A DNA stretch of 64,000 nucleotides, from NCBI GenBank assembly GCA_963840035.1, contig CAWIXE010000002.1, forward strand, positions 992,099-1,056,098. Direction: 5' to 3'. The position numbers and the translations under genes are program-made. Under the pieces are notes generated by a model. It ran no database searches and was not told the DNA's origin. It worked only from the letters and a program-made list of their open reading frames with translations. Shown here one piece after another: positions 4,727 through 40,212 of the stretch (position 1 is its first letter; each line of letters begins with the position of its first letter). This stretch comes from a candidate division FCPU426 bacterium (GTDB lineage Bacteria > Oederibacteriota > PGYV01 > Palsa-1178).

Positions 4727-4782
4727 ATAAACACCTCTCCCTTTTTTTATATATTAACATGAAAAACGGGGGGTGTAAAGAC

Positions 4783-5271: not shown

Positions 5272-7197
5272 CTATTTTAGGATTACCATCTTTTTTGTTA
5301 TCGTTTTACCCTGCGCCGATACCTTTATCAGGTACACGCCGCTTGCGGCTTTCATTCCGCGCTCATTGTCAAGGTTCCATACAACTTCGTTAATCCCCGG
5401 CCGGGTGGCCGCGGCTGTAAGGGTTTTAGCCCAGACCGGCTTATTATTGATATCGGTAATCAACATACCCGCCTCACAGCTTTCCTTTAGGGGGAACCTT
5501 ATCGTTGTAAAATCCCGGCACGGGTTTGGATAGTTATAAGTCTCTGCCGGGTCAAGGGTCTCATAACGAGATTCAACAACTATTGGCGCCGGATTTTTAT
5601 CCGCAAGGACAAAAACCCTAGCGCATTTCTTGCGGGTGTCAATGGCATACTCAACGCCGCATTTCCCGCAGTAAATAATGACACCTTCCGGGAAACCCCT
5701 GGTTAAGAACAACCTGAATAAATTGTCGGCAATTACGCCAAAGTTGGACTTATTGCATCCTTTTTCAGCCATATTGAATTCGCATGATTTTATGGCATGG
5801 CCCTTTGACGGCAGTTCTATATAAATCTTTTCAAGCTTTGTAAAATGGTCATGGGACATCCTGAACCTGAAAACATGCATGCATTTAACTGCTGTCGTTG
5901 CCGGAGTTATTTCGGTTGTGGGCACTTGTGTAGGCATCACGGTTGCCGTCTCTTTAATTATTACAACCACTGTCGCTGTTTCAGTTGGTGTTTGTGTAAA
6001 TGTTTCTGTATCAACAGGCGTTTCAGTAAACGTTTCAGTATTGGTTGGCGTTTCAGTAAACGTTTCAGTATTGGTTGGCGTTTCAGTAAACGTTTCAGTA
6101 TTGGTTGGCGTTTCAGTGAAGATTTCAGTATTGGTTTGTGTTTCAGTGAAAGTCTCAGTATCAGCAGGAGTCTCCGTGAACGTCTCCGTGGCTGTAAATG
6201 TTTCCACAGGCAGCTGCGTCGGTTCTTCAATACGCAGTTCAAAAACAGCTACGCCTTCAGGATAGTTAAACTGCCCCGGCAACGGGCCCTTTACAGCCCC
6301 GAAACTCTTTTCAAACAGTCCATCGGAATTAAATTTCTGTACCCTGTTATTGCCGGCGTCAGCCACATATACATAACCCTCTGAATCCACTGATATGCCG
6401 TATATGTCGCCAAACTGCCCCGCAGCCGCGCCTTTGCTTCCCCATTTTAATTCAAACGCGCCCTCGCGCGAGAACCTCTGCACCCTGTAATTATTCGCGT
6501 CAGCCACATATACCCTGCCGCTGCTGTCGATTGCGGCGGCGCGCGGGTAATTGAACTTGCCTTCCGCCGACCCTATTCCGCCGATTATCTGAAGCGCGTT
6601 GCCGAACGCGTCAAGTTTTTTAACCCTGTTATTTAAAGTATCACATACATATATCAGTCCTGTAACGGTGTCAACTGCCACACCCTGGGGGTTATTGTAG
6701 TCCATGATACCGCTGCCGGCCTTTGTTGAGCCAAAAGTCATAGCCCATGTACCGTCAGCGTTTAAGACCTGTATTCTGTTGTTTCCGGTGTCAGCCACTA
6801 CCACGCGTTCAAGCCCGTCAGTGACTATAACTGCAATGCTGTTCGGGCTGGAAAAACCGCCATTAAGCTTGCTGCTTGCCGGCCCGCCCCAGGTCCCGCG
6901 CCAGTTTCCTGAAGTGTCAAATACCTGCAGCCTGTTATTACCCGTATCAGCTACATATATAAGGCCGCTTGCCATTCCTGCCGCAATGGAACCCGGATAA
7001 CTAAACTGGCTTACCCCGCTGCCTTTTGAGCCCCATGACATAATAACATTGCCGTCAAAATCCATTGATTGGATCCTGTAATTTGAGGTATCAGAGATGA
7101 ATATCGAGCGGATTGTCTGGGCTTGTGTATTATTTGCCAGGAGTAAAAGTACTGTAAGGCTGGTCAGCGTTTGTAGGAGTGATTTTTCTGTTTTCAT
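5272..7197 (-). CDS. secreted NHL-repeat protein with Thr-rich tandem-repeat linker and T9SS-type (Por/FlgD-Ig-like) C-terminal domain
   Basis: Start set at MKTEKS (RBS AAGGAGGTG upstream); repeated 'YVADTGNNRLQVF'-type NHL blades; 'TNTETFTETP' repeats; C-terminus 'NYPNPCRDFTTIRF...GVYLIKV...KKMVILK'. Confidence 0.7.
   Translation of the reverse strand: MKTEKSLLQTLTSLTVLLLLANNTQAQTIRSIFISDTSNYRIQSMDFDGNVIMSWGSKGSGVSQFSYPGSIAAGMASGLIYVADTGNNRLQVFDTSGNWRGTWGGPASSKLNGGFSSPNSIAVIVTDGLERVVVADTGNNRIQVLNADGTWAMTFGSTKAGSGIMDYNNPQGVAVDTVTGLIYVCDTLNNRVKKLDAFGNALQIIGGIGSAEGKFNYPRAAAIDSSGRVYVADANNYRVQRFSREGAFELKWGSKGAAAGQFGDIYGISVDSEGYVYVADAGNNRVQKFNSDGLFEKSFGAVKGPLPGQFNYPEGVAVFELRIEEPTQLPVETFTATETFTETPADTETFTETQTNTEIFTETPTNTETFTETPTNTETFTETPTNTETFTETPVDTETFTQTPTETATVVVIIKETATVMPTQVPTTEITPATTAVKCMHVFRFRMSHDHFTKLEKIYIELPSKGHAIKSCEFNMAEKGCNKSNFGVIADNLFRLFLTRGFPEGVIIYCGKCGVEYAIDTRKKCARVFVLADKNPAPIVVESRYETLDPAETYNYPNPCRDFTTIRFPLKESCEAGMLITDINNKPVWAKTLTAAATRPGINEVVWNLDNERGMKAASGVYLIKVSAQGKTITKKMVILK
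6021..6140. repeat. 30-bp in-frame tandem repeat, 3 perfect + 1 degenerate copies, inside NHL-protein gene
   Basis: Unit 'tttcagtaaacgtttcagtattggttggcg' at 6021, 6051, 6081; degenerate copies flank. Confidence 0.85.
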
Positions 7198-7373: not shown

Positions 7374-9512
7374 TTAAAAATTATAGGTTAATGATATTCC
7401 CACATTTTCCATATCCAGCATGGGCGCAAACCCTATCTTATTTTCCTTTGCTATTCTTTCGCTTCTGTTGGTATAAACCGCGTTGTAAACCGCGGTATAG
7501 CCGGGCGCGGAAGCCACATCAGCAAGATATGAAATTCCAAATAAAGCAATACCCGCATAGCGCATAAAATCCTGCGTCGTATTCCCTGTTTTTGTCCCCG
7601 GGTTGGCGAGGTATAACACCGCGCCAAGCGCTTCAACGCCTGCCAGAGTAAACGCCGTTGAATAATTTTCCGCGTAAAAATTACCCGCGCCATGCGCGAG
7701 CAGTCCGGGGCCGGCCGCTATTAAAAACGCGATGCCCGGTTCCTTTTCATCTTTCTTTTCCGTTACCTTATACGGGCTGTTCGGGCAAAGAAGCTGTTTG
7801 TAATATTCCGAATTGACATTATCGGTATGCAGCAGCGAGCCATAAAGGTCTATGCACCTCATGACGGTGTAAACGCCGATTGCGGAATACATAAAACCCT
7901 GCGCGATCTTTTTATTATCATCGCCGGCTTTTCCGTTATAAATCATTCCCACCCCGTATGTAATGCCCGTTAAAATCGGCGTGGCAATAAGCAGCTTAAG
8001 CGCTGTCTCGTTATCGCCCGCCCACCAGTGCCCTGCTCCGGGAATAATTCCGGCGGTAAGCGAGAATACGGAAGTAAGGGCCGGGTCTTTGTATTCCACC
8101 CTTTCCTTTTCAACTTTAAGCTCCATCGTTTTTATCTTATTAAGGTACAGCTCCGCGTTCTCGGTTGCCACAAAAGGAGCCGTGACATAATCAGTCAAAA
8201 GCCCCGCCGCCATCATGCCGGCTCCTGCTGACATAAGCGCGTAATCGGATTTTTCCGTATTTTCAAATTTACCGTTGATTATGGCGCCGGCCGTGATAAG
8301 CATGCCGCCCACTATGGTAAGCGACGAAGACGCGGGCGTCCATGTCTGCAGCCTGCTCCGCGAATAGAAATTACCGAACCCGGCGTAAAGCAGGTTTATG
8401 GGAAAAAGGTCTATGTACGAAAACATATGGGCCGAGAAAGGCGATTTAAACTCCTCATCAACATTCCTCCCCGCGTAAATCTTGTCCATACCCGCCGCGT
8501 GCGACGCCTCAAGTTTTGTGAGGTATGACGCGGTGGAAACATCGCCCGGATTATAAGACAGGTATTTTTTATAGAAAACTATTGCCTGCTCTTTATTGCC
8601 GAAAGAAACATAACAGTTGCCGAGGCGCTGATACGCCTGGTATATGCCCGCGTTGAGTTTTACAACCTCGGAATAGGCGTAGAATGCCTGCTTGTAGTTG
8701 CGCTGAGATTCCAGGGCCAGCCCTTTTTTATAATACTCCTGCGCCTTTGCCTTATTATCGTCAACCGGCGCTATTTTACCCGCTTCTTCAGCCAGTTTTT
8801 TATTTTGTTCTTCAAGTTTTTTCGCGTTTTCCTGCTGTTTTTTCTCGCTCTCGCGCTGCTGCTCTTCAAGCTGTTTCTGAGCGTCCTTCTGCTGCTGTTC
8901 ATACTGGCGCTGCTGTTCCTCGGTGCGTTTCTTCGCGTCCTGCTGCTGTTGTTCATACTGACGCTTCTGTTCCTCAGTACGGTTTTTGGCGTCCTGTTGC
9001 TGCTGTTCGTACTGGCGTTTCTGTTCTTCAGTACGGTTCTTCGCGTCTTTCTGCTGCTGTTCATACTGCCGTTGCTGCTCTTCAGTTCGTTTTTTTGCGT
9101 CCTGTACCTGCTGTTCATTCTTTCGTTTCTGTTCTTCAGCCTGTTTCTTAGCTTCATTTAAGCGCTCTTCATAGCGTTTCTGGCTGTCATCAGCCGCCAT
9201 TTTTGAGTCTTTATTCTTCTGTTCGACAGCCTTTAACTGTTCTTCCTTTTTTGCCTTCAGCGCTTCCTGATTCTTTTTATAGGCTTCCTGCCTTGCTTTA
9301 TAATCAGCAAGCTTCTTATTATAAGCCTGCTGTGTAGCCTGCGCCACTGCCGCCTTTATCTTAGAAACTACAGGCTTTACAGTTTTGACTGGAACCGCTT
9401 TAACCGCAGGTTTAACCGTAGGTATTGCCGTAGGCTTAACCGTAGAAGCAGCCGCTCCAAAGAGCATATTTGCCGAAGCCAAAAGCACAATTAGCAGTAT
9501 ATATTTTCTCAT
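7374..9512 (-). CDS. secreted coiled-coil repeat / TPR protein with C-terminal putative beta-barrel-like domain
   Basis: Signal peptide; 18-aa Q/E/K-rich repeats (DAKNRTEEQKRQYEQQQQ); TPR-like segment; C-terminus ends '...ISLTYNF'. Confidence 0.5.
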   Translation of the reverse strand: MRKYILLIVLLASANMLFGAAASTVKPTAIPTVKPAVKAVPVKTVKPVVSKIKAAVAQATQQAYNKKLADYKARQEAYKKNQEALKAKKEEQLKAVEQKNKDSKMAADDSQKRYEERLNEAKKQAEEQKRKNEQQVQDAKKRTEEQQRQYEQQQKDAKNRTEEQKRQYEQQQQDAKNRTEEQKRQYEQQQQDAKKRTEEQQRQYEQQQKDAQKQLEEQQRESEKKQQENAKKLEEQNKKLAEEAGKIAPVDDNKAKAQEYYKKGLALESQRNYKQAFYAYSEVVKLNAGIYQAYQRLGNCYVSFGNKEQAIVFYKKYLSYNPGDVSTASYLTKLEASHAAGMDKIYAGRNVDEEFKSPFSAHMFSYIDLFPINLLYAGFGNFYSRSRLQTWTPASSSLTIVGGMLITAGAIINGKFENTEKSDYALMSAGAGMMAAGLLTDYVTAPFVATENAELYLNKIKTMELKVEKERVEYKDPALTSVFSLTAGIIPGAGHWWAGDNETALKLLIATPILTGITYGVGMIYNGKAGDDNKKIAQGFMYSAIGVYTVMRCIDLYGSLLHTDNVNSEYYKQLLCPNSPYKVTEKKDEKEPGIAFLIAAGPGLLAHGAGNFYAENYSTAFTLAGVEALGAVLYLANPGTKTGNTTQDFMRYAGIALFGISYLADVASAPGYTAVYNAVYTNRSERIAKENKIGFAPMLDMENVGISLTYNF
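8881..9100. repeat. 54-bp in-frame tandem repeats (about 4 copies) encoding 18-aa coiled-coil units
   Basis: Units beginning 'gcgtcct(t/g)ctgctg...ttcatactg...' recur every 54 bp. Confidence 0.75.
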
Positions 9513-10152: not shown

Positions 10153-10331
10153 CATTTCTCCTTTTTCCCCAATAAAACAATTATATTTTATCACGTCTTA
10201 CATATATTAGTCAATTTTTAACCAAATTAGTTCCGTTTAAAAGCCCAATCGTAAATCAACAACAAACAACTTCGCAGCACTTATGCTTTTCCATTATATG
10301 CCCGCACAAGCAACAAAATAGTCAGGTTTTC

Positions 10332-10395
10332 GTAGAGACACAGCTTGCTGTGTCTCGCCTTTCAACGTCTGAGACGCAGCAAGCTGCGTCTCTAC
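10332..10395. repeat. 64-bp GTAGAGA...TCTCTAC double-hairpin repeat, copy A
   Basis: 'gtagagacacagcttgctgtgtctcgcctttcaacgtctgagacgcagcaagctgcgtctctac'; two adjacent perfect hairpins; ~97% identical to copy B. Confidence 0.8.
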
Positions 10396-10450
10396 AAAAA
10401 TCCGACTCATCAAGTAGTTCTTAGAATTGCCGTATTACATTTAAAAGCAA

Positions 10451-11104
10451 TTAAAAACTTGTTATGCAACGGGCTGTTTTCATAGGCGTTTTCTTTAACA
10501 TCGTTTTATATTTACCATATGTCCGCCATGTTAAAAAACCCATAAAACGCAAATAATAGATTTCGCATGCCTTCAAAAACGAAAATTTTTGCACCTTATT
10601 CTTATCTGAAACCGTCATTAGCCCGACCATATTCTTTCCTATGCTTGGTTTACCCTGATATAAAAACAGCGCAAAGTATGCGATAAACATTATGAACGCT
10701 ATTATCAGATTTACAGCCATTACGAGGTCGCTTATCACAACATAGCCCCGGATAAAGCCCCACTTAAATTCGCCCGTTCTTAAGTATTCCACACTCAGCG
10801 TAACACAGCTTGTTATCGCGCCGATTGGAATCATCAAAAAAAATGCGTCTATAATAAATGCTGCAGACTTACGTATCCATGACGGCTTTGCGTTAATTAT
10901 CTTAACTTTAAAATCAATGCGCTGAAAAAAATATATGAATACAAGATAAAAAACTGCCACCAGCACGCTTTTCAGTGATGAAACGGCATATACTTTTGTA
11001 GCGCCATTGCTTGATTGTATGGATGTGGCTGAACCAGGATTTAAGAAAATAAGAGCCAAAAATATAACAGTAATTATTTTATCCCAGTTTTTAATTTTAA
11101 CCAC
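10451..11104 (-). CDS. RDD family membrane protein
   Basis: Polytopic membrane protein with 'QGKPSIGKNMVGLMTV' resembling the RDD-domain G-x-[ST]-x-GK...G motif. Confidence 0.5.
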   Translation of the reverse strand: MVKIKNWDKIITVIFLALIFLNPGSATSIQSSNGATKVYAVSSLKSVLVAVFYLVFIYFFQRIDFKVKIINAKPSWIRKSAAFIIDAFFLMIPIGAITSCVTLSVEYLRTGEFKWGFIRGYVVISDLVMAVNLIIAFIMFIAYFALFLYQGKPSIGKNMVGLMTVSDKNKVQKFSFLKACEIYYLRFMGFLTWRTYGKYKTMLKKTPMKTARCITSF

Positions 11105-11147
11105 ATCGCCTTCCTATTCATCTTTGTATTATAAGAATCACAAACCT

Positions 11148-11211
11148 GTAGAGACACAGCTTGCTGTGTCTCGCCCTTCAACGTCTGAGACGCAGCAAGC
11201 CGCGTCTCTAC
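11148..11211. repeat. 64-bp GTAGAGA...TCTCTAC double-hairpin repeat, copy B
   Basis: Same sequence as 10332..10395 with 2 substitutions; lies between uvrA stop and RDD gene start. Confidence 0.8.
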
Positions 11212-11226
11212 AAAAAACAGAACAGG

Positions 11227-16285: not shown

Positions 16286-16301
16286 AATACCTCCATGAAT
16301 C

Positions 16302-16392
16302 AGCTTAAAACTGAAAGCTTAAAACTGAAAATTGAGTCAAAACCGGACTTGAAATATTATTTCATTTTCAGTTTTCAGCTTTAAACTTTAAA
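16302..16392. repeat. simple-sequence imperfect inverted repeat at operon junction
   Basis: 'agcttaaaactgaaagcttaaaactgaaaattga' vs downstream 'ttcattttcagttttcagctttaaactttaaa'. Confidence 0.6.
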
Positions 16393-16398
16393 TTTGTC

Positions 16399-17580: not shown

Positions 17581-17629
17581 AAGGGCGAATTTTCAATTTT
17601 AAATTTTATATTTTCAATTAACACCGGAA

Positions 17630-18518: not shown

Positions 18519-18668
18519 GTCATTGCGATGAGGCGCCTATTACTTCGCCGACAAAGTCCTTCGACTTCGCTCAGGGCCATGAGCCTGTCGAATGGCAATC
18601 TGGCTGTTTTAGAACTTAAACCAGATTGCTTCGTCGCCATAAATCAAATACGGCTCCTCGCAATGACA
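18519..18668. repeat. ~150-bp palindromic MITE/REP-like intergenic element, copy 2
   Basis: TIRs 'gtcattgcgatgagg' / 'cctcgcaatgac'; shares identical 48-nt core with 2623..2780; sits between panC and panB. Confidence 0.75.
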
Positions 18669-21770: not shown

Positions 21771-21868
21771 AACGTTCTCCTTCTTGGTAACCGCAACCTT
21801 TAGGCCGCGATACCGGGTATATTTTGTCCGCAGGCTGAAGCCTGCGACTACCGGAATTTAATGTATAA

Positions 21869-22630
21869 CTAGCGTACGTAGTTAATAAGTCGTCCTATTT
21901 CGCCTATTTCAACTTCCACTTTATCCCCGCGTTTCATGGGGCCAATCCCCGCTGGGGTTCCGGTGCTTATCACGTCTCCCCTGTTTAAGGTCATAACTTG
22001 CGATACAAAGCTCACTATTTTTCTCATTTTAAATATAAATTTCGACGTGTTCGAATCCTGCTTCAATTCTCCGTTTAAGTAAAGTTTTATATCCTGTTTG
22101 TCAGGATTTATATCTTTAACTATGTAAGGCCCGATCGGGGCGAATGTGTCGAACGACTTTGCCCTTGTCCACTGTCCGTCCACGCTCTGAAGGTCACGCG
22201 CGGTAATGTCGTTAAAGCACGTATACCCCAGGACGTTCATGTCCACCATGTCCTCGGAGATGTTTTTGCATGTGTTCTTGATTATTACCGCAAGCTCCGC
22301 CTCAAAATCCACGCGCGACGACATTTCCGGGTATATTATCTCGTCCATGTGGCCTATTAATGACGACGGCGGTTTCAAAAATATTACCGGTTCCTTTGGC
22401 TTGTCAGCTTTCATTTCCTTCGCGTGGTCGGAATAATTAAGCCCCACGCAAATAATCTTTGAAGGTTCGCATGGCGGCAGTATGCGCACCCTGCCGAACT
22501 CAATGACATTGGGCATGACCTTATACTGCGTATATATGTCGCCTTCTATATCGGTAATGTTCTTGTTATTATTAACTATACCCCACTGCGCCGGACTGCC
22601 TTCTATCGAATAACGCACGAACTTAAGCAT
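21869..22630 (-). CDS. fumarylacetoacetate hydrolase (FAH) family protein
   Basis: 'KIICVGLNYSDHAKEM...PVIFLKPPSSLIGH...FEAELAVIIK' FAH-fold motifs. Confidence 0.75.
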   Translation of the reverse strand: MLKFVRYSIEGSPAQWGIVNNNKNITDIEGDIYTQYKVMPNVIEFGRVRILPPCEPSKIICVGLNYSDHAKEMKADKPKEPVIFLKPPSSLIGHMDEIIYPEMSSRVDFEAELAVIIKNTCKNISEDMVDMNVLGYTCFNDITARDLQSVDGQWTRAKSFDTFAPIGPYIVKDINPDKQDIKLYLNGELKQDSNTSKFIFKMRKIVSFVSQVMTLNRGDVISTGTPAGIGPMKRGDKVEVEIGEIGRLINYVR

Positions 22631-22647
22631 GAAGACTCCTCAATGAT

Positions 22648-22764
22648 CGGGAATGGGGAATTGGGAATGGGGAATGGCAGACATAACATCCAGCCACAAA
22701 CCCAAAAACCAAATCCTTACGCCCTTTATTATTGCCATTCCCTATTGCCCATTCCCTATTCCCC
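22648..22764. repeat. simple-sequence imperfect inverted repeat filling the FAH-dapB intergenic region
   Basis: 'cgggaatggggaattgggaatggggaatggcag' vs 'ttgccattccctattgcccattccctattcccc'. Confidence 0.65.
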
Positions 22765-22766
22765 AC

Positions 22767-23546
22767 TTACAGCCCCAACACATCCGCCATCGTATACATG
22801 CCCGGCTGTTTGCCGGCTACAAACTTCGCCGCCTTTAAAGCGCCCATTGCCAGTGTTTCCCTGGAAAAAGCCGTATGTGATATTTCAAGCTTATCGCCCA
22901 TGGAACCGAATATGACTGTGTGCTCGCCGACTATGCCTCCGGCGCGTACCGCGAAGACTCCGATTTGATCCCTGTTTCTTTCATTATTCCTGCCGTCCCT
23001 GCCAAAGACCATGTTGGCTTTCGGGTCAAGCCCTTTTTCCCTGAGGATTACTTCCGCCGTTGTTAAAGCCGTGCCTGACGGCGCGTCTTTTTTCATCCTG
23101 TGATGGGATTCCACTATGTCAATATCATAATCTTCTTTTAATGCCTTTGTAGCCTCTTTGAGCAGCTTCCACATGACATTAATGCCGACGGAATAGTTTG
23201 AGGACAGGACTATGGGTATTTTCTTGGACGCGGTCTCAATCTCAAATAATTCATTCGCGTCAAATCCCGTAGTGCCGATCACCATGGGTTTCTTCGCCTC
23301 TACAAGCGCTTTTATGTGGTTAAGCGTGGCAACAGGCGTGGTAAAGTCTATAAAAACATCCGTGCCCGCTACGCCGGACTTCAGGTCATCGCTGATGGTA
23401 AACCCGTTTATGTTTCCGCCGACAGCTTTGTTTCCTTTCGCCTCAAGCAGCATGGAAATACGGAAATCATCCGGCTGCTGCGCGGCTGAAGATATAAGAG
23501 CCTGCCCCATACGGCCGGCCGCCCCGGAAATGCCTACTTTTAACAT
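22767..23546 (-). CDS. dapB: 4-hydroxy-tetrahydrodipicolinate reductase
   Basis: 'MLKVGISGAAGRMGQ' NAD(P) motif and 'ESHHRMKKDAPSGTA' catalytic motif. Confidence 0.9.
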   Translation of the reverse strand: MLKVGISGAAGRMGQALISSAAQQPDDFRISMLLEAKGNKAVGGNINGFTISDDLKSGVAGTDVFIDFTTPVATLNHIKALVEAKKPMVIGTTGFDANELFEIETASKKIPIVLSSNYSVGINVMWKLLKEATKALKEDYDIDIVESHHRMKKDAPSGTALTTAEVILREKGLDPKANMVFGRDGRNNERNRDQIGVFAVRAGGIVGEHTVIFGSMGDKLEISHTAFSRETLAMGALKAAKFVAGKQPGMYTMADVLGL

Positions 23547-23634
23547 AAAATCCTCCTTGTTAGTTCAAAGCCCAGAGACCAAAGCTCAAGTAAAACCTGA
23601 CTTGGGCTTTTTAACCTTGAGCTATGGGCTTGAT

Positions 23635-24513: not shown

Positions 24514-24557
24514 GATAGACCTCCAGAAATTTTCAATTTTATATTTTCAATTTTCTA

Positions 24558-25370
24558 TTACCATTTTAATGCTTCAGGACCCGCCATGCCTTCGGCTACA
24601 ACCCTTGCGTTACCTTCAAGAAAAACATCATTAATTATGCCGCCGTTATCCTTGAAATATATCGTCAGTTTTCCGCCTTTGGCAAAGAGCGTTACCGGCG
24701 ATTTTGCCACGCCGTTTAAATACAGCGCGATGCCCGCGGCTGTCGCGCCTGTGCCGCACGCGTAAGTTTCAGCTTCCACTCCGCGCTCATACGTCCTTAT
24801 GGCGAATGAATTCTTGCCTGTTTTCTGGACAAAATTTACGTTTGTGCCCTTAGGGCCGAACACCCTGTGAAACCTGAGCATCCTTCCCGTCTTTGCCACA
24901 TCAACTTTTTTTATATCCTTAACCGGCACCACAAAATGCGGCACTCCGGTATTCATGAAAGCGCCTTCCACTCCGCCCGCTGTAACCGCTTTTTTTATGT
25001 CAAAAGGGTCTGTCATGCCAAGTTTCACTTCTCCGTTGGGCTTTACCTGGGCCGTATGCGGCCCGTCATTGGCCATGAACTTAACCGTCGTTCCGGAGTA
25101 TCCCTTCAGGTAAGAGAACCTGGAAATGCACCTCGCGCCGTTTCCGCACATGTCAGCTTCTTTGCCGTTGTTGTTATAAAACTTCATGGTAAAATCAAAT
25201 CCCTTTGAAGGCTTATTCAAAAGTATAAGCCCGTCAGCGCCTATGGAAAACCTGTTAGCGCAGAGCGCGGCTATTTCCTTAGCGGAAAGTTTTATCTTCC
25301 CCTTGTAATTGTCTATCACTATAAAATCATTCCCGTTGCCGGACATCTTGGTGAAGCGCAGTTCTTTCAT
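24558..25370 (-). CDS. dapF: diaminopimelate epimerase
   Basis: 'FTKMSGNGNDFIVIDN' and second-half Cys motif 'YERGVEAETYACGTGATAAG'. Confidence 0.9.
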   Translation of the reverse strand: MKELRFTKMSGNGNDFIVIDNYKGKIKLSAKEIAALCANRFSIGADGLILLNKPSKGFDFTMKFYNNNGKEADMCGNGARCISRFSYLKGYSGTTVKFMANDGPHTAQVKPNGEVKLGMTDPFDIKKAVTAGGVEGAFMNTGVPHFVVPVKDIKKVDVAKTGRMLRFHRVFGPKGTNVNFVQKTGKNSFAIRTYERGVEAETYACGTGATAAGIALYLNGVAKSPVTLFAKGGKLTIYFKDNGGIINDVFLEGNARVVAEGMAGPEALKW

Positions 25371-25382
25371 GAATTACTCCTT

Positions 25383-25466
25383 TGATATTTGATATGCGAT
25401 ATCGGATATTAGATATATATCCTTCTGCCTTCAACGTTTATATCTAATATCAAATATCCAATATCA
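25383..25466. repeat. simple-sequence imperfect inverted repeat between lysA and dapF
   Basis: 'gatatttgatatgcgatatcggatattagatata' vs 'tatatctaatatcaaatatccaatatc'. Confidence 0.65.
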
Positions 25467-25475
25467 CACATGCCC

Positions 25476-26717: not shown

Positions 26718-27097
26718 TTTAAGCCTCCGTAAATGCGTAAGTGTATAGTTTAAGAAATATAACATAATTGCGTTTTTTAGTCAATTTATAGATATAATGG
26801 CTGATTCGGGATTCTGGATTCTAAATTCTGGATTAAAACATCCCAAAACAATTTTACGCTTTATTTTAAAGCAATTTCCGGAAAACGGCAGACGGGAAGC
26901 TGATTTTTGAATAAGCTAAACGGGCACATAGTCATGCTTCACCTCCTGGTATATCCCAATCAAGCCGGCCCGCCAGACCAAAAACCAACCGTCAATTATA
27001 TCGCCTCAGCATCTCACATTATCACTGCAGCCTCCAGCACACCCCGTCAGCTAATTCAAAAATCAGCTTCCCGCCTGCCGCTTCTACGTGGTCTGTC

Positions 27098-27130
27098 TTA
27101 AAAAAAAAAAGCCCGGCTTTCGCCGGGCTT
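27098..27130 (-). terminator. Rho-independent terminator downstream of SPFH gene (bidirectional form)
   Basis: Hairpin 'gcccggctttcgccgggc' flanked by A11 on one side and T4 on the other; on minus strand GC stem followed by 11 U. Confidence 0.7.
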
Positions 27131-27149
27131 TTAAATTTCAGGATTTGTT

Positions 27150-28025: not shown

Positions 28026-28096
28026 TACATTCCCTCCGTCTGAATAAAATCATATTTAAATCTTATCATGTACCGGCCAATAATCAATAATAAACA

Positions 28097-28867
28097 TTAT
28101 TTTTTCACCGCCGTTATCATCCAATCCCAAGGAAAAGGCTCTTTCATCCATTTCGGCGGGGATTCAAACTCCGTATCCCAGCCATATTCCACCTTTTCAA
28201 ATTCAAGGCCGGTAAATCCGTATTTCGGGAGCATCACTTCAAGCTCCTCCTTCAGATAATGTTTTGTTGTGACGTTATCAATGTTTATCAGGCCATGGCA
28301 GACAGAACCTTTTCTTTTATGCGTCGATCTTAATCCGTCTTCTATGGCTTGTTTACGGCTCACGCCGGTGTTTAAGTTCCATTCAAAGAGCCTGCAATTG
28401 ACATAAAGCGACGACTCATGCGAAGGCACAACAAAAACCATACATCCGCCTTTTGCCACGCAGGCGCTGATGTTTTTTAGTATTTTATCCCGTATAACCT
28501 GCGATTCCGCAATAAGCACATTTGTACATATCCCGAACTTTACAGGCCTATTTAACGGCTTCTTTTTAGCCAGGTCTGCCTGTGAAAAATCCACATTTTT
28601 ATATTTAGCGTACTTCTTTATCGCCTTGTCCACCAGCTGTCGCGAAAGGTCCATGGCGTATACATGTTTAAAAGAGGCAGCCAGCAGCGGAATATAAAGC
28701 CCGATACCGCAGCCAAAATCAGCGGCAGCGACACTCTTTGACGCAAATTTGTTTATGCGTTTCCTTATAACCCCGCGCATGTCGCTGTCGAGTGAGCTGA
28801 ATATTTCTTCCTCATAGCTCTTGGCAAGCTTATCCCAGTATTTTTTATCCACTTCCGCCCCTTTCAT
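28097..28867 (-). CDS. class I SAM-dependent methyltransferase
   Basis: Motif I 'AADFGCGIGLY'. Confidence 0.7.
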   Translation of the reverse strand: MKGAEVDKKYWDKLAKSYEEEIFSSLDSDMRGVIRKRINKFASKSVAAADFGCGIGLYIPLLAASFKHVYAMDLSRQLVDKAIKKYAKYKNVDFSQADLAKKKPLNRPVKFGICTNVLIAESQVIRDKILKNISACVAKGGCMVFVVPSHESSLYVNCRLFEWNLNTGVSRKQAIEDGLRSTHKRKGSVCHGLINIDNVTTKHYLKEELEVMLPKYGFTGLEFEKVEYGWDTEFESPPKWMKEPFPWDWMITAVKK

Positions 28868-29412: not shown

Positions 29413-29420
29413 AATAAAAA

Positions 29421-29447
29421 GGGCGCGGTTTTACCCGCGCCCTTTTT
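29421..29447. terminator. bidirectional Rho-independent terminator
   Basis: 'aaaaagggcgcggttttacccgcgccctttttc': GC stem with A-run upstream and T-run downstream; between convergent genes. Confidence 0.7.
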
Positions 29448-29457
29448 CATTTATACC

Positions 29458-31860: not shown

Positions 31861-31972
31861 ATATTTCCTCCTTTTTCCGGGCGTTCGCCCTGTGTTTTGT
31901 GCCTTCACTGAGGAAGACACCAACCCGGGAAAAAGGTTCCATAATAAAACGCATTATTTATAAGGCCATTTG

Positions 31973-31997
31973 TAGGGACAGCGCTCCCGCGCTGTCC
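31973..31997. repeat. GC-rich hairpin, inverted duplicate of hairpin at 32062..32083
   Basis: 'tagggacagcgctcccgcgctgtcc', palindromic stem 'ggacagcgc'/'gcgctgtcc'. Confidence 0.7.
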
Positions 31998-32045
31998 GCG
32001 CGGGGATTATGTTATGATTTTTAAACGTGGCTATAAATTCAGGTG

Positions 32046-32083
32046 AAAAAAAAACGCCGGCGGACAGCGCGGGAGCGCTGTCC
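32046..32083 (-). terminator. Rho-independent terminator immediately after 32084..32602 gene
   Basis: Minus strand reads 'ggacagcgctcccgcgctgtcc' followed by 'gccggcg' and U9. Confidence 0.65.
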
Positions 32084-32602
32084 CTACTCTGCGTACACCC
32101 ATTCAAAATCTCTTATTTTACTATTCCAATAAGCAATCGCGCTGTCAGCGTGAAACCGTTTAAACATGATTACCGGCGTTTTAAAAGTCCGGCCCTGCCA
32201 TGTCCCGGTGAAACTTTCCAGGCTGAGGTTATCCGGTAAGGATTTATACTTTCCCAGGAAATATTTCCTGTAATTGGAGCCTTCGCTGATCAAAGCGATA
32301 GCCTGAGCGGAAAAATTCACAACAACCCCGTTTTCCACCACATCCGACCTGACAATAAAGGCATAATCCTTTATGCCGTCAGAGTTAAAATCCGTGTTTA
32401 CATATCCCGGGCTTTTTAGTGTTATCTTGTGTTTCTTTAAAAAGGTTAAAAAATCATCGCTTAAATCCTTTACAGTCATTGTCCTTGCGTCAGGGCCGAA
32501 TGACATGAGCACGCTTTCAAAATTAAGGCCTTCAATTGGCCAGATCTGTGAAAAACAGAAAACAGGAAGTAATATTAAAACAAGTACAAAGATTTTTTTC
32601 AT
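32084..32602 (-). CDS. secreted hypothetical protein
   Basis: 172 aa, signal peptide MKKIFVLVLILLPVFCFSQ; no recognised motif. Confidence 0.5.
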   Translation of the reverse strand: MKKIFVLVLILLPVFCFSQIWPIEGLNFESVLMSFGPDARTMTVKDLSDDFLTFLKKHKITLKSPGYVNTDFNSDGIKDYAFIVRSDVVENGVVVNFSAQAIALISEGSNYRKYFLGKYKSLPDNLSLESFTGTWQGRTFKTPVIMFKRFHADSAIAYWNSKIRDFEWVYAE

Positions 32603-32624
32603 ACCCGCCCCTTTTAAGTCCCAC

Positions 32625-32652
32625 GTAGAGATGGGGTTAACCTCATCTCTAC
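32625..32652. repeat. GTAGAGA...TCTCTAC hairpin (12-bp stem, 'ttaa' loop)
   Basis: 'gtagagatggggttaacctcatctctac'; same terminal heptamers as the 64-bp repeat family. Confidence 0.6.
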
Positions 32653-32658
32653 GAAGGC

Positions 32659-34291: not shown

Positions 34292-34363
34292 TTAAACAGA
34301 CACCATTCCTTTATTTTTGTTCCAGGTGTTTAAAAACGCCAATCGACAATAGTCAATCATCAA

Positions 34364-35269
34364 TTATTTGACAACATCGGTCTTACCTATGAGCATATTA
34401 CCCAGAATCCTCAGATAGTCTTTTATCGTTATATAAACCGCGTTATCAGGCATAGGAACCTTGTGCGGAAACGGCCTTGAATATACGTTAACCAGCGTAT
34501 GGTGAAGCACGTGTTCCCTTGTGTCACCATGGGTAAAGAACAGGAATATTTTTTCCATAAACCCCTTGTCGCTTAAATTCCTGGTTTTAATGTTCCTGTT
34601 GTTATAATCCCCCTCAACTATCAGGTTGCCGTGCTCTATCATCTGCGAATGGTGCAGGAAGAAAGAATTGATCCAGATGGAAACCAGGTATGAAACAGCC
34701 ACAGCCCCGGCGCTGACGCCGAATACGAAATGCGCGGCTGTGCCAAGCCCTCCCAAAAACAGGGCTATCATCAGCAGTGTCAGCAGCGATGATGATCTCC
34801 TGTATTTAGCTTTATACTTAGGATGAGCGGGCAGAACAGCCGTTCCCATAAGCGAAATAAACGCTATGCCCAGGAAAATTTCGGCAATGTTATAAATGAT
34901 CTTAACTGCCCTGCTCTTTATCTCGCCGAGCGGGTGGAACTCAGTGTCATCCCATGTATTTACTTGGGAGTGATGAAATCCGTGAAGGATCTTATATATC
35001 TGGGGGTCTGTCAGAAGCATCCAGGAAAGGACATAATACAATTTTTCATTGTCAATATTTGTCACATATTTATGCCAGGTCTCATGCATAAGGTATCCAA
35101 GCCAGGTAAAAAGATATAGCCCGGGGAATATCATATAAGCAACAGACCACCATCCCGCTGCGGCAAAAACATAAGGAAGCGTAAAAAGATAAGCCGGCCA
35201 CGCAAACATGATGAAATAGAACTTCCAGGCCTGAGATTTAATTTCCTGTTCAGATATGTATTCAGCCAT
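34364..35269 (-). CDS. membrane fatty-acid desaturase family protein
   Basis: Histidine boxes 'HETWH', 'HGFHH', 'HHSQMIEH', 'HVLHH'. Confidence 0.75.
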   Translation of the reverse strand: MAEYISEQEIKSQAWKFYFIMFAWPAYLFTLPYVFAAAGWWSVAYMIFPGLYLFTWLGYLMHETWHKYVTNIDNEKLYYVLSWMLLTDPQIYKILHGFHHSQVNTWDDTEFHPLGEIKSRAVKIIYNIAEIFLGIAFISLMGTAVLPAHPKYKAKYRRSSSLLTLLMIALFLGGLGTAAHFVFGVSAGAVAVSYLVSIWINSFFLHHSQMIEHGNLIVEGDYNNRNIKTRNLSDKGFMEKIFLFFTHGDTREHVLHHTLVNVYSRPFPHKVPMPDNAVYITIKDYLRILGNMLIGKTDVVK

Positions 35270-35395
35270 ATAACCCTCCTATATGAGTAGATAACGACAT
35301 AATTATATATAGTAAAAGGTTTTTTTGCAATGTTTTTGAAGCAGGTTATTGACATCAGGACATGGCTTGCCACCCACTACTCACCACCCACTACC

Positions 35396-37470
35396 CTACC
35401 TCACACACACCAGCTTCTCAAACCCCTGCGCCTTTTCCCCTGTCTCTATCTGCGCTGTGACCGAGTATATAAAAGTCCCTGAAGCTATGTGTCTTTTTGC
35501 CCTGTTTTTTCCGTCCCAGTGGAAGTTATTATGGCCGGCTTTCGCGTTTATGCCGCATTCTTCTATGACTATCTCGCCTGATACGGTAAACACCCTCACG
35601 CACACCTCAGCGTCCCTTGAAAGCCAGTAAACTATGTTTGTGTCCTCGGCAAAAGGGTCGTTATAATTGCCTTTTAGTATAAGCTGTAACCGCGGAGTTA
35701 CCGGGGTAACAGTTGCAGACGCCTGCGGTGTCGAAGTTACTGTGCGGGTCGGTGTTGCAGTAATTGTCTTTGTAAATGTCAATGTTGGTGTAATTGTCCT
35801 TGTTATTGTTTTTGTCGGGGTAAATGTCATGGTCTGAGTTTTTGTAATCGTATCTGAAACAGTCATTGTCGGCGTTATGCTGAAAGTTGTTGTCATGGTC
35901 TGCGACGGTGTCAGTGTTTGCGTGACAGAATTAGTCAGGGTGACTGTCCGGGTCGGCAGAAGCGTTTCTGTGTGTGTTACGGTATAACTCGGGGTCTCAG
36001 TCAAGGTATCCCCGGGCGTCTGCGTCTGTGTATAAGTCGGGGTCCTGGTAAAAGTCGGCGAATTCGGACTTGTTGCGGTCCTTGTCGCTGTTCTTGTTCC
36101 GGTCGGAGTGCGCGTTGGCGTTACTGTAGCGGTAGAAGTGGATACGAAATCCGTCATCCCTGACCCGCCCGGATAGCCATATCCATCCTGGTCGTCAAAA
36201 CCGTACACGTTGACGCCTATTGGAAGCGGTGAAATAATGTTGTGGCTCCCGACCCCGACGCTTACGCGCGTGGCCGAAAAACCGCTGGATGCAATAGAAA
36301 TAAAACTACCCGCAGGTATAACCGAACCGTCAACTGATAATAGCCCGGCTGCGGCGTCAGGGGCAGTGATATTTAAATAATTCGCAGAGAAACCGGATTG
36401 TGGCGTCCCAACAGTGTAATTATCCAGATACTGCTCGACAGGTTCTATAATCATCATGAACGGGTCGCCGGTTGTGGAATCAAACATGGTGCTGTTTGAA
36501 TACTGCATAACAAGCACCCGGTTGTTCGAAGTTATCATTCCCGCCCCGCTGATTAACGCCTCAAAAAACGCGCCTTTGACCATAGGCGACGGGTTTAAAA
36601 GAGCCCCGTCAAGGTACAGGTATGTGCCGTTTTGTGACGCCATAATTCTGTAGGTATCGGTCCCTGACCTTCCCGCAAGCGGAACGATAATAAATTGTTT
36701 CCCCCAGCTCGATGTCGGGGCAGCTGTTCCACAAGGTAATTGCAGTAGTTGGATGACACCGGGATATCCGCGCAGATATGGCCCCCGAAAACAGCAATAC
36801 GCCTGTCAGAATCCACGGTTGTTCCGGTTAAATCCTCACTGCCGGGATTGTCATCTCGCAGTAAATAGACCTGCCCTTTATTCAGAATTACGTCATACGG
36901 GACATTCTGGATCCTGCCGCCTATCGTGCAGTTAAGCCTGATTGTCACCGTGGTGTTATCTTCGACAGCCACTACGGCAAATTCACTTCCTACCGGGTTA
37001 TTTACGCCGCCGTTATTGAATGAAAGAATTATATGGTTGGTGCCAAGCGCTTCCACAGGAAGGCCCAAAAACGCGTCTGTAATGACAGGGCTGTGCGAAT
37101 AACCGTATACGGTTACCGGATCAGCCGAGGTTACATGTATACCCCTCACCGAAACAACGTCGCTGTCAAAAACGTCGCTGTTCCATGGCAGGTCCACATA
37201 GGTTATAGCGCCGGCAGTCACATTTACATTTTTGTTAAACGTCAGGACCGGCGATAAGGATATGGTCATGTTCACGGTTGCTGTCGTATTGGTCTGTGAA
37301 GTGATGAGTATTTGCTTTGCAGGCGATATTCCCGAACTGTAAGGCGAATAATATGACCCCGGGATGCAAATCCAGAAATCAGTCCCTTCGCTGGTGGGTG
37401 AAGAAAATGCATAAAACGGCATTATGAAAAGATATGCCATTACTGTCAAAACCTTAATTTTTAATTTCAT
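35396..37470 (-). pseudogene. frameshifted gene for secreted IgGFc-binding-like domain protein with Thr-rich linker and T9SS-type C-terminal domain
   Basis: ORFs 36595..37470 and 35396..36643 are one gene: the '...NYCNYLVEQLP' frame continues as 'PTSSWGKQFIIVPLAGRSGTDTYRIMASQNG...' in the next frame; shift at G4 run 36717..36720. Confidence 0.6.
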
Positions 37471-37558
37471 TCCCGCTCCAGTAAGGATGGACTTATTTCT
37501 CTATAAATATATCGGAAATATGGGAGAAACCTTGAATTGAATTAATGTTTTAAACACC

Positions 37559-37725
37559 GGTAGCCCGCAACCTTCGAGATGCTATTGCTAGCCTTGGCGG
37601 GCAAACATTAAATCAGCGCAATTCATCTAATCTTGCCGTGTTAATCACGGCTGGTTGCGAAAGGCAGGTTCTCGCCCGCCTGACACCGGCAGCCAGCCTT
37701 GCGCAACCTGAAGGTTGCGGCTACC
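37559..37725. other. GC-rich ~170-bp intergenic element with nested inverted repeats (candidate structured RNA or MITE)
   Basis: Closing stem 'ggtagcccgcaaccttc'/'gaaggttgcggctacc'; internal 'ggcgggc'/'gcccgcc' and three 'gcaacc'/'ggttgc' pairs. Confidence 0.3.
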
Positions 37726-37729
37726 AGAA

Positions 37730-38800
37730 CTATAAAATACCTTTCTTTAATTCTTCCATATAAACTTTCTTAGCCGTTTTTCCCGACTTATATATGGCCT
37801 CGACCATCCACTGCGTCTCAAGCCCGGCATCCTCGTCAACGTCCACAGGCGTGTTATTTATAATCGCTTCGTAAAAACGCCTTATCTCCACCGAATGGCA
37901 ATAGCCCCAGTATTCTTTCCATCCGCTTCCATAATCAATGAACTCGCTCTTTTTAGGTTTGGCTGAAAGATGGCTTCCAAAAAGTTTCTTCTCATTAAAA
38001 TAAACGTCTGCCTGGTCCTTCACTATTTTTACTTTGCCTTTTTCGCAGTGTATTTCCATGACCACGTCATCGTCGTATGAATAATGGCATATGGTATAGA
38101 AGTTGATGTACGAACCGTTCTTAAACATCACAACGCCGGCCGCGTCGTCTTCTACCTGTACTTTTACATGCATCCTGTTGGCGATGGACGCGTCTACCCA
38201 GTCTATTTCAGAGTTAAATACGTAACGTAGAATGTCCAATGAATGGATTGCCTGATCTATAATAACCCCGCCGCCCTCTTTATCCCATGTCCCCTTCCAG
38301 TCGCTTTTAAGATAATACTCGTCAGGCTTGCACCATGAAAGTATCAGCTTTGCCGAGAGTATCTTTCCCAGTTTTCCTGACTCAATTGTCTTTTTAGCCA
38401 GCTGCGTGGAGGGGTTATACCTGTTCTGGAACGAAATGGCAAACTTTACCTTCTTTTCTTTTATCTTTTTATAAAGCGCCACAGCGTCAGCTGCGCTTGT
38501 GGTCATGGGTTTTTCCTGGTAAATGTGGACGCCGCGTTCAGCGGCGTATTCAGTCATTTCTTTGTGCAGGTAGTGCGGGGTACACACATGTACCACGTCT
38601 GGTTTTACCTGGTCAATCATGCTTTTATAATTGGCGAATGTTTCACAGCCGTATTTATTCCCCGCGGCCAGAAGCCTGTCCTGTTTTATGTCACAAACAG
38701 CCTTTAATTCGGCAATATCCTTACATGCCTGACGCACAGATTCCGCGTGCATCGGAAAAATAGTTCCGCATCCTATGATCGCAACCTTTAACTTAGCCAT
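37730..38800 (-). CDS. Gfo/Idh/MocA family oxidoreductase
   Basis: Start set at MAKLKVAIIGCG (RBS GGAGGG); Rossmann motif and Gfo/Idh/MocA C-terminal domain. Confidence 0.8.
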   Translation of the reverse strand: MAKLKVAIIGCGTIFPMHAESVRQACKDIAELKAVCDIKQDRLLAAGNKYGCETFANYKSMIDQVKPDVVHVCTPHYLHKEMTEYAAERGVHIYQEKPMTTSAADAVALYKKIKEKKVKFAISFQNRYNPSTQLAKKTIESGKLGKILSAKLILSWCKPDEYYLKSDWKGTWDKEGGGVIIDQAIHSLDILRYVFNSEIDWVDASIANRMHVKVQVEDDAAGVVMFKNGSYINFYTICHYSYDDDVVMEIHCEKGKVKIVKDQADVYFNEKKLFGSHLSAKPKKSEFIDYGSGWKEYWGYCHSVEIRRFYEAIINNTPVDVDEDAGLETQWMVEAIYKSGKTAKKVYMEELKKGIL

Positions 38801-38812
38801 ACCTAACCCTCC

Positions 38813-38857
38813 ATTTGTCTTATTTGTCTTATTTGTCTTATTTGTCCTATTTGTCCT
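38813..38857. repeat. 9-bp tandem repeat x5 immediately upstream of oxidoreductase RBS
   Basis: 'atttgtctt' x3 then 'atttgtcct' x2. Confidence 0.85.
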
Positions 38858-38865
38858 ATTAGCCA

Positions 38866-39432
38866 TTACTCAAAAACGTGCGTCAGCTGCACTCCGGCAA
38901 AAATACCGCTCAAATCAATATACCCCGGATCAAAAGGCGCGTAGTTAAAGCCGGCTTTGTAATACCTGTATCCGACTTCCAACCCGGCATAAAACTGCCC
39001 CTTTACCTGATAAAGAAACGCTTCTTTAACCGCAAATTCAAAACCTCCGCCTTTTTCATCATTTACATCTATTCTATACCTTGCAATTCCATATCCGGCC
39101 GACACTGTTGACCAGAGCATATATTTTTTTTCATCAAATAACACCATATAGCCAAGGTCCACCGAAGGTATCGGCGAGATGATTCTCATGTTATGGCCTG
39201 ACAAATCCAAATCCTCAATGCCCAAATGATTATAAGCAAACCCCGCGCTGAAACCATTTTCCCAAACCCAGCCCAACCCTCCGTTTGGCACGGCAACCCT
39301 TCCGGATTTTATCCCGAAATCTTTATTTTCCCCGTACATCTCCTGATCATATCCGAGAGTAAGGTATAATCCGGCATTTATAATCGCCGACATAGCAGCA
39401 ACAAAAAAAAGTATCAGCACTGTTCTTTTCAT
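38866..39432 (-). CDS. small outer-membrane beta-barrel-type protein
   Basis: Signal peptide MKRTVLILFFVAAMSAIINA; Gly/Tyr-rich alternating strands; C-terminal 'LTHVFE'. Confidence 0.5.
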   Translation of the reverse strand: MKRTVLILFFVAAMSAIINAGLYLTLGYDQEMYGENKDFGIKSGRVAVPNGGLGWVWENGFSAGFAYNHLGIEDLDLSGHNMRIISPIPSVDLGYMVLFDEKKYMLWSTVSAGYGIARYRIDVNDEKGGGFEFAVKEAFLYQVKGQFYAGLEVGYRYYKAGFNYAPFDPGYIDLSGIFAGVQLTHVFE

Positions 39433-40196: not shown

Positions 40197-40212
40197 CCTC
40201 CACCCTCAAAAC

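Follow-up and report, generated by a model that had tools for sequence, protein, structure and literature searches.

Heptanucleotide repeats and intercistronic palindromes in bacteria

Heptanucleotide repeats are the most over-represented long simple sequence repeats (LSSRs) in many prokaryotes, and their 7-nt step has been linked, speculatively, to the footprint or slippage of DNA polymerase (Mrazek et al. 2007, as reported in PMC4692102 and PMC4679880). A class of short tandemly repeated repetitive sequences (STRRs) is known from Calothrix and Nostoc, with three STRR heptamers in Calothrix (cited in PMC4692102). The subject of the present work is a set of intergenic repeat arrays in a 64,000-nt stretch of DNA from an uncultured bacterium (the whole stretch is called the window), and above all the imperfect palindrome at 22645-22766 that separates dapB (22767-23546) from a gene of the FAA-hydrolase family (FAH, 21869-22630). 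The phenomenon is real and highly non-random, and its preliminary description was incomplete: it belongs to the class of heptanucleotide simple sequence repeats (SSRs), often in inverted-pair form, and the common denominator of the sites is the heptanucleotide unit and not a palindrome with varying motifs. To our knowledge, 35 years of work on heptanucleotide repeats have yielded neither a reason for the 7-nt step nor a function.

The arrays of the window resemble the LSSR/STRR repeats in their 7-nt unit, their short and intergenic-enriched form, the lack of enrichment of other periods, the presence of several motifs per genome, and the lack of an established function. They differ in their host, whose nearest metagenome-assembled genomes (MAGs) are labelled FCPU426 and which is neither a cyanobacterium nor a proteobacterium. 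The arrays are also short (3-5 units) and degenerate, about half of them form inverted pairs, and they are concentrated in the operon spacers that run from a stop codon to the next ribosome-binding site (RBS).

In Xanthomonas campestris, 186 repeats of the GGGAATC type have been described, which include about 70 convergent inverted pairs (Rehm et al. 2015, PMC4692102). The repeats lie between genes, are transcribed, and differ in length from species to species, and the formation of G-quadruplexes (G4s) has been proposed for them (PMC4692102). The motif is named GGGAATC (GGGANTN) in X. campestris and X. citri, and a GGGGA(T/C)T motif is named for Nostoc PCC 7120 (PMC4692102). The dapB-FAH locus, (GGGAATN)4 followed by a convergent (NATTCCC)4, has nearly the same motif and exactly the same architecture. 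Its arms (22645-22681 and 22733-22766) form a convergent inverted pair in which the G-rich arm lies 5′ on both strands. GGGANTN units with at least four intact G3 tracts are found at this locus only (CGGGAATGGGGAATTGGGAATGGGGAATGG), and most other arrays are not G-rich. Whereas Xanthomonas has essentially one motif, the G-rich motif of the window is one of more than 10 heptamers that share the architecture, and G4 formation therefore cannot be the general rationale.

TAACTGA heptamers are known from marine Beggiatoaceae, cyanobacteria, and Bacteroidetes (MacGregor 2015, PMC4679880). Like the arrays of the window, they are intergenic direct repeats of two to six copies that often touch stop or start codons, and stops in three frames are possible in both. 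In contrast to the window, TAACTGA is a single motif that lies mostly directly upstream of start codons, often replaces the RBS, and almost never forms inverted pairs (one case). The window arrays have many motifs, lie close to the stop codon, retain the RBS, and are frequently paired.

Repetitive extragenic palindromic (REP) sequences, bacterial interspersed mosaic elements (BIMEs), and other intercistronic stem-loops stabilise upstream mRNA segments, as in the malE-malF type of Escherichia coli. REPs are families of conserved sequence with GTAG-type heads that are dispersed by RAYT transposases. The hairpins of the window share with them the form of imperfect palindromes in untranslated intra-operon spacers, and a comparable behavior at the RNA level would be expected by analogy. 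The heptamer hairpins, however, share no sequence family, and genuine REP-like GTAG palindromes co-exist with them as distinct elements.

A 7-nt period largely confined to intergenic DNA

Tandem Repeats Finder (TRF) reports a period of 7 or 14 at every site named in the preliminary description and at several that it did not list. Under a strict criterion (three units with at most two mismatches), period-7 arrays occupy 189 intergenic bases of the window (42 bases/kb), compared to 0.55/kb in coding DNA and 0.9 ± 4.5 bases in dinucleotide shuffles. Periods 6 and 8-12 have zero intergenic bases in the window under the same criterion. With a slightly looser one (at least 11 of 14 lag-7 self-matches), 16 of the 17 arrays of the window are intergenic, with an intergenic share of the window of 7%, and a period-7 array is present in 12 of the 24 gaps that measure 40 nt or more and separate co-directional genes.

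Each array consists of three to five slightly degenerate tandem units and occupies untranslated spacer that separates the stop codon of one gene from the Shine-Dalgarno sequence of the following one. At about half of the junctions, a second array of reverse-complementary sequence follows downstream at a distance of 15-60 nt, or of about 250 nt where a further element is inserted. The properties expected of heptamer SSRs are thereby found in the window: 7-nt units arranged head to tail in three or more copies, an excess confined to period 7 and to non-coding DNA, and, in the junction tables and the tree of relatives described below, an instability of length and presence.

Eight gaps had been reported as intergenic and as filled with a short motif that is tandemly repeated in one arm and mirrored in the other, each with a different motif. 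All eight are intergenic, one of them (40140-40210) only after the downstream start codon is moved to a TTG at about 40133, a correction that is supported by the alignment of the L005 homologue. A tandemly repeated short motif is present in every one. The mirrored copy is found in six of the eight, with imperfect stems of 14-30 pairs: five are convincing hairpins (4780-4858, 16300-16396, 22645-22766, 25378-25472, and 40151-40212), one is weaker (23565-23634), and the gaps 24514-24557 and 60292-60362 contain direct arrays instead. The motifs do mostly differ from gap to gap, but 24535-24552 shares an 18-mer with 17602-17619, and AATT is enriched throughout the clade. What had been overlooked is the constant 7-nt unit itself, together with the arrays at 2842-2869/2562-2589, 17586-17619, 26801-26834, 28078-28099, 34337-34367, and 35375-35396.

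The postulated excess of intergenic folding over shuffled sequence exists as well, since 12 of the 26 gaps of 40-300 nt reach z ≤ -2.6. Only four of these 12 are heptamer hairpins. The other eight strongly folding gaps, two-thirds of the total, contain REP-like GTAG palindromes, an element resembling MITEs (miniature inverted-repeat transposable elements), or genuine terminators.

The hairpin between dapB and the FAH gene

The dapB-FAH locus is composed of two arrays of a 7-nt unit that are inverted relative to each other. On the plus strand, the left array reads CGGGAAT GGGGAAT TGGGAAT GGGGAAT GGCA, and the right array, 51 nt after it, reads TGCC ATTCCCT ATTGCCC ATTCCCT ATTCCCC. The genes lie on the minus strand, and the right array is therefore the 5′ arm of the mRNA (22733-22766, GGGGAAT AGGGAAT GGGCAAT AGGGAAT GGCA in mRNA sense). 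It starts 1 nt past the dapB stop codon (22767-22769) and contains four tracts of at least three G. The loop of 51 nt (22682-22732, minus strand) is G/U-rich in mRNA sense and resembles neither the loops of the other hairpins nor an Rfam family. The 3′ arm (22645-22681, minus strand) reads TGCC ATTCCCC ATTCCCA ATTCCCC ATTCCCG in mRNA sense.

The two arms form 30 pairs with single mismatches every 4-10 nt. The predicted fold has a minimum free energy of -53 kcal/mol, with z = -3.3 to -3.4 as RNA and -3.9 as DNA. Just 3′ of the stem, the mRNA continues with GAUCAUU-GAGGAG-UCUUC-AUG, in which the Shine-Dalgarno sequence GAGGAG of the FAH gene (22637-22642, minus strand; start codon 22628-22630) is unpaired, so that the RBS stays free. 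No match in the window reaches the gathering score in Rfam 15, and an E-value threshold adds nothing meaningful: the only matches in the region 22637-22774, to plant miRNA hairpins, fall below the threshold and are attributable to chance (26 bits compared to a threshold of 135 bits).

Further arrays of the window

The arrays described below lie on the minus strand. The period-7 scan also finds an array at 28078-28099. Among the hairpins, the one between the PilZ gene and the outer membrane protein (OMP)/TPR gene (4780-4858, z = -4.8) is built of ATTGACA/TGTCAAT heptamers, and its upstream arm overlaps the stop codon at 4851-4853. The hairpin between nadX and the ABC-transporter gene (16300-16396, z = -2.6) is composed of 14-nt super-units, AGCTTAA AACTGAA, and their mirror. 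In the lysA-dapF hairpin (25378-25472, z = -4.0), GATATNN heptamers form arms at 25380-25417 and 25437-25471. At 40151-40212, GAGGGTG GAGGGTG GGG faces CTCAACC CTCTACC C, and the arm duplex has an energy of -24.9 kcal/mol. The weaker dapA-dapB hairpin (23565-23634) has AAGCCCA/TAGCTCA-like units in arms that are only loosely heptameric, with z = -1.4 for the sense and -3.0 for the antisense strand.

The remaining pair is spread over a larger distance. An array of GATAAGC type directly after a stop codon (2842-2869) has its distal partner arm about 250 nt away (2562-2589), and a MITE-like palindrome (2622-2781) lies between the two. The duplex of these arms has an energy of -21.2 kcal/mol, compared to -8.1 ± 2.8 in shuffles.

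Direct arrays stand at several other junctions. The dapF-dapA array (24527-24559, TGAAAAT/ATAAAAT) overlaps the dapF stop codon, and its gap (24514-24557) has no inverted partner and folds no better than shuffles (z = +0.8). The same is true of the fliP-fliQ gap (60292-60362, z = +0.6), which contains AATTACN-type heptamers at 60323-60357. The panC-panD array (17586-17619) carries the 18-mer AATTGAAAATATAAAATT, which is the one that recurs at 24535-24552. Between the fatty-acid-desaturase and sigma-factor genes, an ATTGNNN array (34337-34367) overlaps the stop codon, whereas L034, one of the related loci, has an AATTACN array at this junction instead. The array GGTAGTG GGTGGTG AGTAGTG (35375-35396) follows right after the stop codon of an IgGFc-binding-domain gene. 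A CCAGAAT-type array precedes lysA (26801-26834), just upstream of a promoter-like site with an extended TG (TTGACT-17-TATATT) that adjoins it within 26756-26834. Judged by this position, the array would take the place of an UP element and not of an mRNA spacer.

Variation of the junctions among relatives

The dapB and FAH genes belong to a row of 12 co-directional genes, identified with Pfam as lysA-dapF-dapA-dapB-FAH-aminotransferase (AT)-folK-dNK-panB-panC-panD-nadX. The nearest database relatives are MAGs with DapB identities of 57-80%; one is labelled "candidate division FCPU426," some "Spirochaetia," and more distant ones "Goldbacteria." The order of the 12 genes is identical in all 12 clade loci, and the junctions vary. 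Minimal spacers (stop codon, 10-50 nt, GGAGG, ATG) without period-7 arrays are found in L001, L005, L006, L035, and L037. The array-bearing loci, which have junctions of 100-260 nt, contain 16 (window), five (L002, L003, and L034), four (L004), or three (L036) period-7 arrays. The period-7 excess in non-coding DNA recurs in five related loci, and periods 6, 8, and 9 are at about zero in all 12 clade loci.

The dapB-FAH junction illustrates this variation. It measures 136 nt in the window, 185 nt in L003, where two other palindromic elements are nested in the loop of an AATTNAA-heptamer hairpin, and 135 nt in L004, where it contains a direct CAGGGTC array. In all other loci, the junction has 10-62 nt or the genes overlap; it is 29 nt long in L001 and 10 nt in L005, and the overlap is found in L002 and L018.

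A neighbor-joining (NJ) tree of concatenated proteins places the window together with L034 and L035. The GATAT-heptamer hairpin at lysA-dapF is present in the window and in L034, and L035 has a junction of 22 nt at this site. L002, L003, and L036 form a second group, in which all three carry AATTACN arrays at dapA-dapB; the copy numbers differ, and only L002 has an inverted partner. By these two patterns, the arrays are long-lived at a site, yet change in length, motif, and pairing, and they can be lost completely.

The architecture extends beyond the clade. L030 is an unrelated metagenomic contig (DapB 40% identical, 51% G+C) that carries inverted heptamer-array hairpins at dap-gene junctions (1-191, 8836-8977, and 10736-10830), one of them with an (AGAAGCA)5/(CTAGCTT)n pair that flanks a nested G/C-rich palindrome. 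The heptamer hairpins are therefore not specific to the lineage of the window, as had been suggested at first, and the same architecture has also been published for Xanthomonas (PMC4692102).

Paired arms and sequence shared between sites

Of the spacers that hold two arrays, counted across loci, about 10 have a complementary pair and two have arrays of unrelated motifs. The pairing extends to the variants among the units. In L003 (4175-4335), 31 consecutive pairs include a single GAC variant unit, in L002 an ATGACTA unit pairs with TAGTCAT, and at 16300-16396 of the window the 14-nt super-units are mirrored between the arms. The mirrored order of unit variants argues for a partner that was copied, in inverted form, from an array whose units had already diverged, and against independent slippage in each arm; this points to template-switch copying of the existing array.

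Several sequences are shared between sites. The 18-mer AATTGAAAATATAAAATT is identical at 17602-17619 and 24535-24552, 7 kb apart, with a chance expectation of 0.06 matches. L004 has paralogous inserts in two adjacent junctions, and AATTAC-N repeats occur in five genomes (window, L002, L003, L034, and L036). AATT is contained in 19 of the 38 array consensus units of the clade, compared to 6.0 ± 2.0 in letter-shuffled units, although the arrays are not all independent. Local slippage does not suffice for these recurrences, and copying between sites or a sequence preference is therefore needed besides it.

Proposed origin and weighing of the alternatives

We consider it the most probable reading, with a probability of about 0.65, that the arrays are heptanucleotide SSRs of the STRR/LSSR class that grew by slippage and inverted copying and that act, probably passively, as intercistronic stem-loops. 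Arrays would gain and lose units by replication slippage in steps of 7 or 14 nt, and genes would be purged of them, presumably since 7 cannot be divided by 3. The partner arm would be created by inverted (template-switch) copying, and the same process would keep the arms similar. The 18-mer common to two junctions and the recurrence of AATT-core motifs would be due to occasional copying between junctions. In the polycistronic mRNA, paired arrays would form long stem-loops with imperfect pairing, and the next RBS would remain free. Such stem-loops would most likely be passive or mildly useful, as barriers to 3′-exonucleases or as a mask for naked A/U-rich spacer, and they would be neither terminators nor sequence-specific signals.

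The two parts of this reading differ in strength. For the origin, slippage in 7-nt steps combined with inverted copying appears to be the best-supported mechanism, and a role at the RNA level as intercistronic stem-loops is plausible. The preliminary description had offered a lineage-specific terminator, an RNA-processing solution, or hairpin expansion by slippage, and the last of these is partly supported and closest to the evidence. The strict 7-nt period, the 14-nt super-units, the confinement to non-coding DNA, and the rapid turnover agree with it; the mirrored order of unit variants in the partner arm does not.

Several observations weigh against the preferred reading. Slippage is not directly seen, as the closest non-identical relatives, at about 80% DapB identity, are too distant for polymorphism in unit number. 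The step of 7 rather than 6 or 8 is without explanation, here and in the literature. Purely local slippage predicts neither the AATT-core excess (19 of 38 compared to 6 expected) nor the identical 18-mer in two junctions nor the paralogous inserts of L004, and an added copying step is therefore required. Finally, arrays are kept at the same junction over about 20% protein divergence, and the arms show a weak excess of G·U over A·C mismatches on the sense strand (14 compared to 6), both of which would fit selection for an RNA function.

Such selection is at the center of the rival explanation that survives best, which we nevertheless consider unlikely. Here, the hairpins are operon "punctuation" that is maintained because it adjusts how strongly the genes of the operon are expressed relative to each other, by a block to 3′→5′ exonucleases, by endonuclease processing, by keeping Rho from loading on long spacers, or by uncoupling the translation of neighboring genes. 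Their placement always leaves the RBS free, relatives that have diverged keep them at the same junction, five of the six window hairpins fold slightly better as the sense strand, and complementary array pairs far outnumber unrelated ones. The same 12-gene operon, however, has bare junctions of 10-50 nt in close relatives, many arrays are unpartnered and unable to fold, and the architecture recurs in the unrelated lineage and context of L030. The G·U asymmetry in the arms is not significant; the larger difference over whole gaps (33 compared to 12) arises because the loops are G/U-rich, and an argument for RNA-level selection from it was rejected. Evidence from compensatory changes is missing because the arms are copies and not co-varying pairs.

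In a second alternative, which we regard as rather improbable, the arrays are no passive products of slippage. AATT-core heptamers would be self-propagating or templated by an enzyme, would be copied from junction to junction and into inverted pairs, would specifically colonise the spacers from stop codon to RBS, and would be read in a 7-nt register by a nucleic-acid-binding factor or nuclease. If this is true, the number 7 would reflect that machinery and not the footprint of DNA polymerase, and the arrays would tune expression within operons.

The sequences shared between sites are also what speaks for small non-autonomous mobile elements of the REP/MITE kind that insert between stop codon and RBS: the 18-mer at two junctions 7 kb apart, the paralogous inserts at two adjacent L004 junctions, the AATTACN motif in five genomes, and the polymorphic presence or absence at orthologous sites. 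This explanation is very improbable, as the arrays have no common termini, target-site duplication, or shared loop, their motif varies by site, they differ by whole units and occur as single arms, and the true REP/MITE-like families of the window are conserved in sequence and quite different in appearance. Specific mobile or cassette elements were rejected individually. A MITE is contradicted by the lack of direct repeats flanking the hairpins and by arms that are internally repetitive and site-specific. For REP/BIME elements, arms and loops lack a family sequence, and the GTAG-headed palindromes of the window are separate; no RAYT gene was found in Pfam scans of about 40 ORFs (open reading frames) of the window, beyond which no search was aimed at RAYT. 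Integron attC sites do not fit either, as the genes form a syntenic housekeeping operon and not cassettes, and the arm ends have no RYYYAAC/GTTRRRY core sites.

Still less credit is given to a structure or binding site formed by the repeats themselves, either a G4, as proposed for the GGGAATC repeats of Xanthomonas, or an array bound by proteins of the Csp/S1 type with one protein per heptamer. The flagged 5′ arm does offer, on either strand, four tracts of at least three G with loops of 3-4 nt in nearly the Xanthomonas motif (PMC4692102), the AATT-core enrichment hints at a sequence preference, and PMC4679880 cites the binding of heptamers by CspB. Only one or two of about 17 window arrays are G-rich, however, the motifs are too diverse for one sequence-specific binder, and the G-tracts are locked in the stem when the arms pair.

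Lineage-specific intrinsic terminators or attenuators at operon junctions, which the long stems straight after stop codons might suggest, deserve hardly any credence, because a U-tract is absent from the hairpins, the next gene's Shine-Dalgarno sequence and start codon lie within 10-25 nt beyond them, they stand inside an operon of conserved order with zero-length or overlapping junctions elsewhere, and they are passed over by a terminator scan that finds a canonical GC-rich stem with a T-run at 27107-27132; a second terminator of this kind lies at 29413-29457.

Two further ideas about the unit were discarded. Backup stop codons in three frames, which a 7-nt unit could supply (7 = 1 mod 3), are found in 13 sense compared to eight antisense cases among 37 oriented clade arrays. 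The bias in the window partly reflects a real stop codon inside the array, and TTGTTCT/AGAACAC (L003) and CAGGGTC (L004) are counter-examples. A conserved core with a contiguous variable linker is not apparent, as the variable columns of the units do not adjoin one another more than random ones would (P = 0.24-0.5).

Other palindromic elements and neighboring genes

The window harbors palindromic families that are distinct from the heptamer hairpins. A REP-like double hairpin, GTAGAGACGCAGCTTGCTGCGTCTC ... GAGACACAGCAAGCTGTGTCTCTAC, occupies the gaps 10320-10407 and 11147-11212 and recurs at the HK-ABC1 junction of L035 and the FAH-AT junction of L007 and L020. Its folds reach z = -6.8 and -8.0, and the sense strand folds better than the antisense strand. 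GC-rich palindromes at 21771-21868, 31972-32087, 32603-32658, and 37471-37729 are mostly GTAG-headed (for example GTAGTCGCAGGCTTCAGCCTGCGGAC) and look like several REP families; one GC-rich palindrome pair has perfect arms of 28 nt (GTAGGGACAGCGCTCCCGCGCTGTCCGC).

A MITE-like palindromic element of about 160 nt, GTCATTGCGAGGAG ... CCTCGCAATGAC, is present in two copies (2622-2781 and 18519-18667). The second enlarges the panB-panC junction to 209 nt, which measures about 11-27 nt in most relatives, 48 nt in L037, and 86 nt in L035. The first stands between the two arms of the heptamer-array pair at 2562-2869. In the dapB-FAH hairpin of L003 (3217-3401), the two elements in the loop are TATTGTTGCGAGCCTTAAGGCTCGCAACAATA and GTCGC...GCGAC. 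The nested elements in this loop, in 2562-2869 of the window, and in L030 suggest that small palindromic elements land preferentially in the loops of heptamer hairpins. G/C-rich palindromes of the form CCCCTTTGTAAGGGGAGG recur elsewhere in L030.

The window, with a G+C content of about 46%, comes from a contig of 1.7 Mb and carries nearly all genes on the minus strand; no tRNAs are found in it. The only other copy found, L015 from an independent Logan assembly, matches it with 100% identity over 13.4 kb. ORF 40883-41890 is a release-factor gene with PCRF and RF-1 domains, and a short ORF upstream (about 41930-42011) ends in AGAGGTGTATCTTTGAC, the classical prfB +1 programmed frameshift site in which an SD-like (Shine-Dalgarno-like) sequence is followed by CUU UGA C. 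The motif is also present in L005. The IgGFc-binding-domain protein is split into two ORFs (35396-36643 and 36595-37470) with an overlap of 49 nt, one matching Pfam profile positions 1-127 and the other 147-297, which would fit a frameshift, a pseudogene, or an error in the assembly.

Tandem repeats of other periods lie in frame within coding DNA at three places. A 9-nt repeat, ATTTGTCTT, is present 5.3 times with 97% matches at 38813-38860, at the 5′ end of the gene 37730-38866, and possibly gives this gene a length-variable N-terminus. In-frame repeats with periods of 30/60 occur at 6017-6180 in a protein with NHL repeats and a type IX secretion system (T9SS) tail, and repeats with periods of 54/108 at 8853-9173 in a TPR protein.

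Implications

New to the heptanucleotide repeats are the host lineage, the number of motifs that share the paired architecture, and a clean set of operon junctions for comparison. For annotation, the message is that such hairpins in uncultured genomes are not to be called terminators. A conserved 12-gene operon whose junctions are bare, carry a single array, or carry an inverted pair across about a dozen relatives constitutes an unusually clean natural experiment, which makes three things testable: what the arrays do to mRNA processing and expression, the order of events, with the array preceding its inverted copy, and the turnover of motifs.

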